Assembly: GCA_965214605.1 (NCBI GenBank)
Contig: OZ243961.1
Location: 4,224,001 to 4,288,000 of the forward strand
Source: an uncultured Candidatus Binatia bacterium
GTDB taxonomy: Bacteria; Desulfobacterota; Binatia; Bin18
Length of the DNA stretch: 64,000 bases
Direction of reading: 5' to 3'
Shown: positions 26,320 through 26,481 of the stretch, piece by piece
How the letters are laid out: every line of letters begins with the position of its first letter
Numbering within the stretch: the stretch's first letter is position 1
Position numbers and translations under genes: made by a program
Notes under the pieces: generated by a model
What the model was told of the DNA's origin: nothing
Seen by the model: only the letters and a program-made list of their open reading frames with translations
Databases searched by the model: none

Positions 26320-26481
26320 CTTCGGCATGCCTTCCTCGCGGCAGCGGCGGCCACTCGTGGGCTCGCTGTCGTGACGCGGAACACGGGCGGGTTCCGCAAC
26401 GAAGAGAGATGTGGCTTCCCCTGTACAGTTGCTGTCGTGACGCGGAACACGGGCGGGTTCCGCAACACCGGCGTCGCGACG
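26320..26481 (+). pseudogene. C-terminal remnant of a VapC/PIN toxin
   Basis: AFLAAAAATRGLAVVTRNTGGFRN...TGVAT matches the PIN IAATA..GL.VVTRN..DF..TGV pattern. Confidence 0.7.
26365..26466. repeat. 36-bp direct repeat / 30-bp unique insert / 36-bp repeat (CRISPR-like single unit inside the vapC remnant)
   Basis: GCTGTCGTGACGCGGAACACGGGCGGGTTCCGCAAC identical at 26365-26400 and 26431-26466. Confidence 0.95.

Follow-up and report, generated by a model that had tools for sequence, protein, structure and literature searches.

A natural 36+30+36 repeat-insert-repeat unit that probably records off-target spacer integration by a type II-C CRISPR system

The stretch of DNA analyzed here, hereafter called the window, comprises 64,000 nucleotides (nt) from an uncultured Candidatus Binatia bacterium (G000:C1:4224001-4288000, where C1 stands for chromosome coordinates) whose genome has 4.37 Mb. 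Near position 26,400 of the window, two identical 36-mers flank an insert of 30 bp, a CRISPR-like arrangement. Judging from the sequence, this unit is quite likely to be the product of ectopic (off-target) spacer integration by the Cas1-Cas2 proteins of the host's own type II-C system. We favor this interpretation because five observations concur: the geometry of the unit is that of the II-C array, a copy of the insert is found elsewhere in the chromosome, an empty form of the site exists, the II-C cas genes are intact, and the duplicated DNA resembles the cognate repeat. The parts of the unit, in window positions, are as follows:

26365-26400, strand not assigned: pseudo-repeat copy 1, 36 bp of duplicated non-CRISPR DNA, identical to copy 2.
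26401-26430, strand not assigned: ectopic spacer, a 30-bp insert that is a 30/30 copy of G000:C1:1462643-1462672.
26431-26466, strand not assigned: pseudo-repeat copy 2, identical to copy 1 and the sole copy in a contig from the public run X3, described below.

The presence of two identical 36-mers around a 30-bp insert, first noticed in the initial annotation, was borne out by a repeat search, which returned a single family with two copies, 100% identical and 66 bp apart from start to start. The intervening 30 bp read GAAGAGAGATGTGGCTTCCCCTGTACAGTT. The bases that precede the two 36-mers differ (c vs t), and so do the bases that follow them (g vs a); these differences fix the length of the duplication at exactly 36 bp and that of the insert at exactly 30 bp. 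When up to 3 mismatches were tolerated, only these two copies of the 36-mer were found in the 4.37-Mb genome, and a reversed-pattern control gave none. An exact 36-nt pair at 66-bp spacing far exceeds chance. Tandem Repeats Finder returned 13 rows across the window, none of them at 26365-26466.

The host has four large CRISPR arrays:

I-E-like array: 28-nt repeat, 97 copies; 94 of 96 spacers are 33 nt long.
37-nt-repeat array: 25 copies; spacers mostly 39-47 nt.
38-nt-repeat array: 76 copies, with another 15 on contig C2; most spacers 34-39 nt.
Type II-C array, C1:528854-529970: 17 identical 36-nt repeats and 16 spacers.

Spacers in the II-C array are 30 nt long in 11 of the 16 cases, the others having 29, 31, 31, 37 and 47 nt, and a geometry of 36+30 is found only in this array among the four. 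The initial annotation had called 36+30 the typical type II geometry; these are precisely the repeat length and the modal spacer length of the host's own II-C array. Adjoining the array are a cas9 gene of 1080 amino acids (TIGR01865, 613.6 bits), a type II cas1 (TIGR03639, 255 bits) and cas2, all three uninterrupted and with scores over the NCBIfam cut-offs. A search of the II-C locus with Rfam yielded nothing at or near threshold. The whole genome contains 8 matches to Cas1 profiles, none of them inside the window, and at least 4 Cas1 genes besides that of the II-C system exceed the Pfam cut-off. The unit and the II-C array are separated by 3.7 Mb in contig coordinates.

The source of the insert could be traced. 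The 30-mer recurs once in the genome, with 30/30 identity, on the minus strand of C1:1462643-1462672, that is, in the same chromosome but 2.79 Mb away. The donor site is intergenic, placed in a gap of about 1 kb that has a short-chain dehydrogenase gene on one side and a FIST-domain gene on the other, in an ordinary chromosomal context for which Rfam returned nothing at or near threshold. Its flanks are non-homologous to those of the insert, and the directly adjoining bases differ at both ends. The initial annotation had reasoned that an insert derived from neighboring DNA would speak against integration, and had proposed a search for the 30-mer in phage and plasmid databases. The source turned out to lie in the host's own chromosome yet far from the unit, and virus and plasmid sequences did not provide one: the 30-mer had 0 matches in IMG/VR viral contigs, and the entire 102-bp unit gave only 24-25-nt matches to phage and plasmid records, with E values of 0.8-0.9 that correspond to chance level. 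A donor at a distance of 2.79 Mb is therefore what one would expect of a self-derived spacer, and not of a local duplication. Slippage or tandem duplication would leave a second copy of the 30-mer nearby, and none was found.

Public sequence data contain both empty and filled forms of the site. Six runs from three studies cover most of window positions 25400-27400, and four of them (X1, X3, X5 and X6) were examined after assembly with k=31. In X3 (study P2), a 795-nt contig links 26364 to 26431, skipping 66 bp, with a joint that is ambiguous over 36 bp; the contig shows 0 differences otherwise across 25708-26568. The same run contains the donor locus, detected as loose ends at 26401 and 26430. 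The filled form is found in X1 and X5 (study P1), where contigs end at 26394 and restart at 26437, as expected of a k=31 graph that meets a 36-nt repeat entered from two sides. A 90-nt contig of X5 (26371-26460) bridges repeat, insert and repeat. Hence, a near-identical strain with a single 36-mer exists, and its difference from the unit is exactly one repeat plus one insert, regardless of whether the single-copy form is ancestral or the result of loss. A search for the empty site among relatives, made with 26200-26800 against 61 genomes, detected no orthologous site; only the 3' end of the monooxygenase gene located upstream of the unit (query positions 1-106) was matched, in two genomes of the same genus.

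The initial annotation had also suggested a comparison of the 36-mer with the true repeats of the host, and the outcome was informative. In its minus-strand reading (GTTGCGGAAC...), the 36-mer is identical to the II-C repeat (GCTGCGGATT...) at 18 of 36 positions, including 7 of the 8 at the start. A score of 18/36 or higher is reached by 0.12% of all chromosomal 36-mers when both strands are considered, and comparison with 20,000 random 36-mers, taking the better orientation of each, gave p = 0.0024. The other three host repeats (I-E, 37-nt and 38-nt) showed no such likeness (p = 0.30, 0.31 and 0.93, respectively). At the junction, positions -3 to +8 (three 'leader' bases and eight repeat bases) match the II-C counterpart in 9 of 11 cases, a score equaled by 1,911 sites in the genome (a fraction of 2.2e-4) and obtained with a segment that was chosen post hoc. 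On the plus strand, the 36-mer starts with GCTG as does the real II-C repeat, yet overall identity is 11/36. Both attacked borders of the unit are G.

Based on these observations, the following sequence of events can be envisaged. A 30-bp prespacer would have been cut from the host's own chromosome, at the intergenic site C1:1462643-1462672. Its integration would have missed the leader-proximal repeat of the real array and struck instead 36 bp of decaying, non-coding DNA, one end of which resembles the start of the II-C repeat. Two staggered transesterifications, 36 bp apart as set by the ruler of the integrase, would then be followed by gap repair, duplicating the 36 bp and giving rise to the 36+30+36 arrangement. 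The machinery involved would be Cas1-Cas2, probably with Cas9. The notion that a repeat-like sequence unrelated to CRISPR had served as integration target, already put forward in the initial annotation, has gained in weight with the II-C geometry, the distant donor, the empty form and the likeness to the II-C repeat.

Units of similar architecture were also found elsewhere in the genome. A scan for exact direct-repeat pairs of at least 20 nt, with periods of 36-130, outside known arrays and non-tandem, detected 52 pairs; 35 of them had periods of 60-79, compared with about 11 expected if periods were evenly distributed, and peaks were seen at periods 61 (7 pairs), 73 (4 pairs) and 77 (4 pairs). 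The 36+30 unit is the sole pair at period 66. Fourteen loci combine the geometry of a host system with repeats that are not CRISPR repeats: 9 are I-E-like, 2 are 38+35, 2 are 37+40 or 37+41, and one is the 36+30 unit itself. The other thirteen are:

I-E-like units, exact (27-29 + 33-34), seven loci: C1:91695, 500128, 711165, 1399850, 2692053, 3921609 and 4089123.
I-E-like units whose 29-nt duplication contains one mismatch, two loci: C1:125255 and 2694922.
38+35 units, two loci: C1:2103855 and 3068860.
37+40 or 37+41 units, two loci: C1:2197075 and 3676203.

The insert has a second genomic copy in 7 of the 14 units (6 of 13 if the 36+30 unit is left aside), while only 3 of 225 spacers from real arrays match the genome outside an array. 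One of the self-derived inserts, at C1:125255-125344, is a 32/32 copy of C1:2307693-2307724, a stretch found 26 nt inside the real I-E array's leader. At C1:711165-711316, the pseudo-repeat GCTGCCCCCCCCCTGCACGTAGCGCGCAC is present in three copies separated by two different inserts of about 33 nt, and the locus looks like a neo-array that has grown. Likeness to the I-E repeat was detected at p<0.05 in 5 of the 9 I-E-like pseudo-repeats (best p = 0.0002), and the units of the 37- and 38-nt types showed no likeness to the repeats of their systems. When one repeat plus the insert was removed in silico at 19 units, no clear restoration of a long open reading frame (ORF) was observed, and most units lay in DNA with short ORFs; therefore, the other units seem to be located in non-coding DNA. 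Altogether, we lean towards the view that each of the four co-resident systems (I-E, II-C, 37-nt and 38-nt) has inserted spacers by mistake into ordinary DNA, leaving a natural record of array birth in the form of at least 14 geometry-exact neo-CRISPR units, while candidates may number as many as about 35.

Two further details of this survey deserve mention. The donor site of another unit, C1:1691840, is adjacent to the 37-nt repeat system's cas locus. Furthermore, the three real-array spacers that match the host do so perfectly (two I-E spacers and one of the 37-nt system, at C1:3170433-3170465, 3218149-3218181 and 51258-51299), and two of these self-targets are less than 50 kb apart, possibly in a prophage. 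One candidate within the window, a 20-nt exact pair with period 70 at 58949-59038 (C1:4282949), was discarded as an integration unit: it is an ordinary tandem duplication, as the sequence after copy 2 repeats the start of the gap (11/12).

Flanking sequences were inspected for a protospacer adjacent motif (PAM) and for clues about orientation. A relative of the host, G081, harbors an array of 98 repeats, with a repeat identical to the II-C repeat at 33 of 36 positions and a Cas9 that is 69% identical. Protospacers were found for just 3 of its 97 spacers in 28 genomes of the family and 400 of the class. Their 3' flanks are CGGGACCT, GCTCCTCC and CACATCCA, and the only base that they share is C at +7. 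At the donor site, the flank is AACGGCCA for a plus-strand reading of the unit and TGGTTGCC for a minus-strand reading, with C at +7 in both. For the I-E system, the flanks of five ectopic units and of two real spacers with a self-match gave no consistent PAM.

Solitary repeats of II-C type were detected in other relatives. In a genome of the same genus, G006, a II-C-like repeat with 88% identity over 41 nt (L032, ~1499-1541; G006:C3:279028-279068) stands alone, 107 kb from the II-C array of that genome, and is preceded by a partial duplicate of its own first 9 nt. A similar lone match was found in G037.

Several observations weigh against II-C off-target integration as the origin of the unit. 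The evidence for an empty site consists of one k=31 contig, with a depth of about 5, in a single run, and the single-copy form in X3 could be either ancestral or due to a subsequent loss, the two copies having recombined. Around 10,000 other chromosomal sites score 18/36 or higher against the II-C repeat, and likeness does not single out 26365-26400. The orientation clues are discordant: CC at +6/+7, present in two of the three G081 flanks, is matched if the unit is read in plus orientation, while similarity to the repeat favors minus. Besides, this is the only II-C-like unit in the genome, and self-derived spacers are not found among the real II-C spacers (0/16 with a second genomic copy). 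Protospacer searches with the latter gave only short chance matches, and none of the 16 had a protospacer in 55 genomes of the family, 401 genomes of the class, 50,697 phage records and 72,556 plasmid records.

A different origin, considered improbable, is an in-frame duplication within a remnant of a vapC (PIN) toxin gene, the likeness to CRISPR being a coincidence. That the 66-bp gain keeps the frame is correct: the plus frame across the unit contains AVVTRNTGGFRN twice, and reads ...FLAAAAATRGLAVVTRNTGGFRN, a stretch that we take to resemble a C-terminal PIN motif. The toxin remnant itself, in which the initial annotation had placed the unit, could not be found. A Pfam search of the plus-frame ORF gave no PIN match even at E<=10, and a six-frame search of the whole genome for PIN (PF01850) at the same threshold detected 7 matches, none at the unit. 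By tblastn, the 39-amino acid stretch matched a genuine PIN gene of the host at best in 9 of 15 residues (E = 1.1). Support for the presumed vapC remnant is therefore limited to a 12-residue resemblance. Space is also short, as about 125 bp separate the repeat from the stop codon (26237) of the upstream gene, which encodes a flavin monooxygenase of 541 amino acids; a stub of at most ~40 amino acids would fit. Both strands are open around the unit, a common situation at 58% G+C, and the homology that can be detected next to it is found on the opposite strand:

26472-26738, minus strand: C-terminal fragment of a transporter of the CitMHS / Na-sulphate-symporter type (PF03600, E 9.8e-6; PF00939, E 1.1e-5).

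Within the ORF at 26286-26858(-), residues 41-129 correspond to profile positions 331-426 of 472, the first 330 being absent; the fragment, which amounts to the C-terminal third of the transporter, is a gene remnant. Transporter homology is detectable only to 26472, 6 bp short of repeat copy 2, which leaves the pseudo-repeat at its 3' edge.

Some further observations concern the surroundings of the unit. In run X6, from the third study, contigs track the monooxygenase gene to approximately 26232 (26221-26232) and continue into unrelated sequence; the run has no cover over 26233-26819, and nothing was drawn from that gap. DNA downstream of the monooxygenase gene appears to be strain-variable. 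In three runs, contigs with loose ends are unlike the window before 26741 or after 26742, which suggests a recombination or mosaic boundary at 26741-26742, the upstream end of the transporter fragment. Further downstream, window positions 26762-31970 harbor a candidate defense pair, PDC-M23A/PDC-M23B. The PDC-M23A-like gene begins at 26762 and has a profile match that goes no further than position 205 of 265, with about 1.2 kb of other sequence before the B gene; the latter (28587-31970) encodes a PDC-M23B/HamB-like DEAD-box helicase of 1127 amino acids. The contigs of X1 and X5 diverge from the window at 27374. No mobile-element genes were seen beside the unit.

We regard as very unlikely that the unit is what remains of a true array from a lost or foreign system (e.g., type V or another type II) that carried a self-targeting spacer. 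A geometry of 36+30 is common in class 2 systems, and the 36-mer contains a 7-bp stem (GCGGAAC/GTTCCGC) that ends 3 nt from one of its ends; a stem near the end is likewise found in some Cas12 repeats. The stem noted in the initial annotation is real, but its stability is ordinary: the predicted folding energy is -7.8 kcal/mol (z = -0.95), and 30 of 200 shuffled sequences fold as well or better. Against a remnant array stand the low copy number of the 36-mer, limited to the two copies of the unit, and the lack of exact matches elsewhere, both in genome contigs from 185,579 species (0) and in metagenome contigs (0). Rfam detected neither CRISPR-DR nor any other family at or near threshold in 24000-29000, and Cas1 is missing from the window. 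A large neighboring ORF that might have encoded a Cas12-like protein was rejected as such, as it is the 1127-amino acid DEAD-box helicase of the candidate PDC-M23 pair. The single copy found by X3 in otherwise identical sequence, and a spacer that is 100% host chromosome, are also difficult to reconcile with this origin.

The unit might have been produced, with an equally slight probability, by a repair accident that did not involve Cas proteins. Template switching of the kind known as microhomology-mediated break-induced replication (MMBIR) or fork stalling and template switching (FoSTeS) would have copied the 30 bp and re-copied the 36 bp. Templated insertions are known in bacteria, and a GCAAC pentamer is found near the upstream junction in both unit (...CGCAAC/GAAGAG, where the slash marks the junction) and source (...GGCAACCA/GAAGAG). 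A shift of 2 nt between the two pentamers, however, leaves both exact junctions without microhomology. Repair would also leave unaccounted for the exact lengths of 36 and 30 bp, as well as the fact that units throughout the genome copy the repeat and spacer lengths of each host system. Finally, it is barely conceivable that the I-E, 37-nt or 38-nt system, rather than II-C, performed the integration: additional Cas1 genes exist and most ectopic-looking units belong to those systems, but their repeats of 28, 37 and 38 nt and their usual spacer lengths do not yield 36+30, and the 36-mer is unlike their repeats.

If the unit was formed by II-C integration, one may ask whether it works as a guide. 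A candidate anti-repeat of the trans-activating CRISPR RNA (tracrRNA) was identified directly upstream of cas9, at ~C1:534600-534640. Its predicted pairing with the real II-C repeat amounts to -47.9 kcal/mol, compared with -16.6 (minus) and -22.4 (plus) kcal/mol for the 36-mer, which falls within the background of 2000 random 36-mers (-18.6 +/- 4.0 kcal/mol). The II-C repeat terminates in TATACT, a -10-like hexamer, and such an ending is found in other II-C repeats too. The 36-mer does not have the TATACT end, and 0 promoter-like sites were found in 26100-26900. Compared with a functional II-C array, the unit therefore lacks tracrRNA pairing, a repeat-embedded promoter and a Cas1 match in the window. 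Because neither tracrRNA pairing nor a promoter was detected, the unit is probably inert and not a working Cas9 guide, and its self-matching spacer probably harmless, which would explain that a perfect self-match survives.

The closest precedent is found in the type I-E system of Escherichia coli, where off-target integration spawns neo-CRISPR loci according to the parts of the literature that were accessible (Nivala, Shipman & Church 2018, Nat Microbiol; PMC7054753, PMC6546382, PMC9456107, bioRxiv 10.1101/148544). As described in the same sources, Cas1-Cas2 was over-produced and oligonucleotides were supplied in the E. coli work, and the natural cases, from two other species, are circumstantial. 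As far as those accounts go, the unit shares with the E. coli loci a spacer-sized insert at a non-CRISPR site, a duplication with the length of the cognate repeat, and a target similar to the site normally used for integration; the E. coli loci were proposed to open a way towards new arrays. Unlike them, our unit is natural, fits a II-C system, carries a self-derived spacer and is represented by empty and filled forms in public runs. Another difference is that the host genome has 13 more geometry-matched units, from three other systems.

Type II systems offer two additional comparisons, again within what could be consulted of the sources. In the type II-A systems of Streptococcus thermophilus and Streptococcus mutans, ectopic acquisition takes place at true repeats inside the array (PMC5338259, PMC7999890, PMC8265633). 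The common trait is a type II machinery that inserts away from the leader-proximal repeat; in contrast, our unit has its target in non-CRISPR DNA, at a distance of 3.7 Mb (contig coordinates) from the II-C array. Kim et al. (2019; PMC6895254) report that, in vitro, the off-target sites of type II-A Cas1-Cas2 show a preference for G and look like a leader-repeat junction; the position of the second cut is measured by a ruler, which preserves repeat length. The G at both borders, the 9/11 junction match (post hoc, as stated above) and the 36-nt duplication agree with that description. The events reported by Kim et al. were, however, mostly half-site integrations into plasmids in vitro, while our unit is complete, repaired and chromosomal, and belongs to a II-C host.

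Solitary repeat units and the mini-arrays of phages and mobile elements are also known; they consist of one or two repeats with a single spacer and are located away from cas genes. Their repeats match the host CRISPR repeat, and they are thought to be functional guides against competitors. Our unit is different: its 36-mer shares only 50% of its bases with the II-C repeat, no pairing with the candidate tracrRNA is predicted, and its insert targets the host's own chromosome. To our knowledge, direct evidence for array birth by off-target integration is confined to E. coli with over-produced Cas1-Cas2. The literature searched, which covered few subscription journals, contained no description of a type II-C system that had integrated off target into a chromosome in nature.

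The 36+30 unit is an unusually well-documented case of a known phenomenon, and the sister units found throughout the genome are the more surprising lead. The questions on which it bears are how arrays originate de novo and how faithful spacer integration is in nature. As donor site, target site and empty allele have all been identified, the rules of target choice in II-C systems become testable on a defined substrate. The genome-wide set suggests that off-target integration can be frequent in a CRISPR-rich organism. It also suggests that self-derived spacers are common where autoimmunity is impossible (7/14 in units vs 3/225 in real arrays), and that two-repeat 'questionable CRISPRs', as annotated in genomes, may often be genuine traces of Cas1-Cas2 activity. 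If the units are indeed a record of array birth, they would represent an unfiltered sample of what adaptation captures without interference; the 36+30 unit has, in addition, been caught in an empty and a filled state in different public samples.

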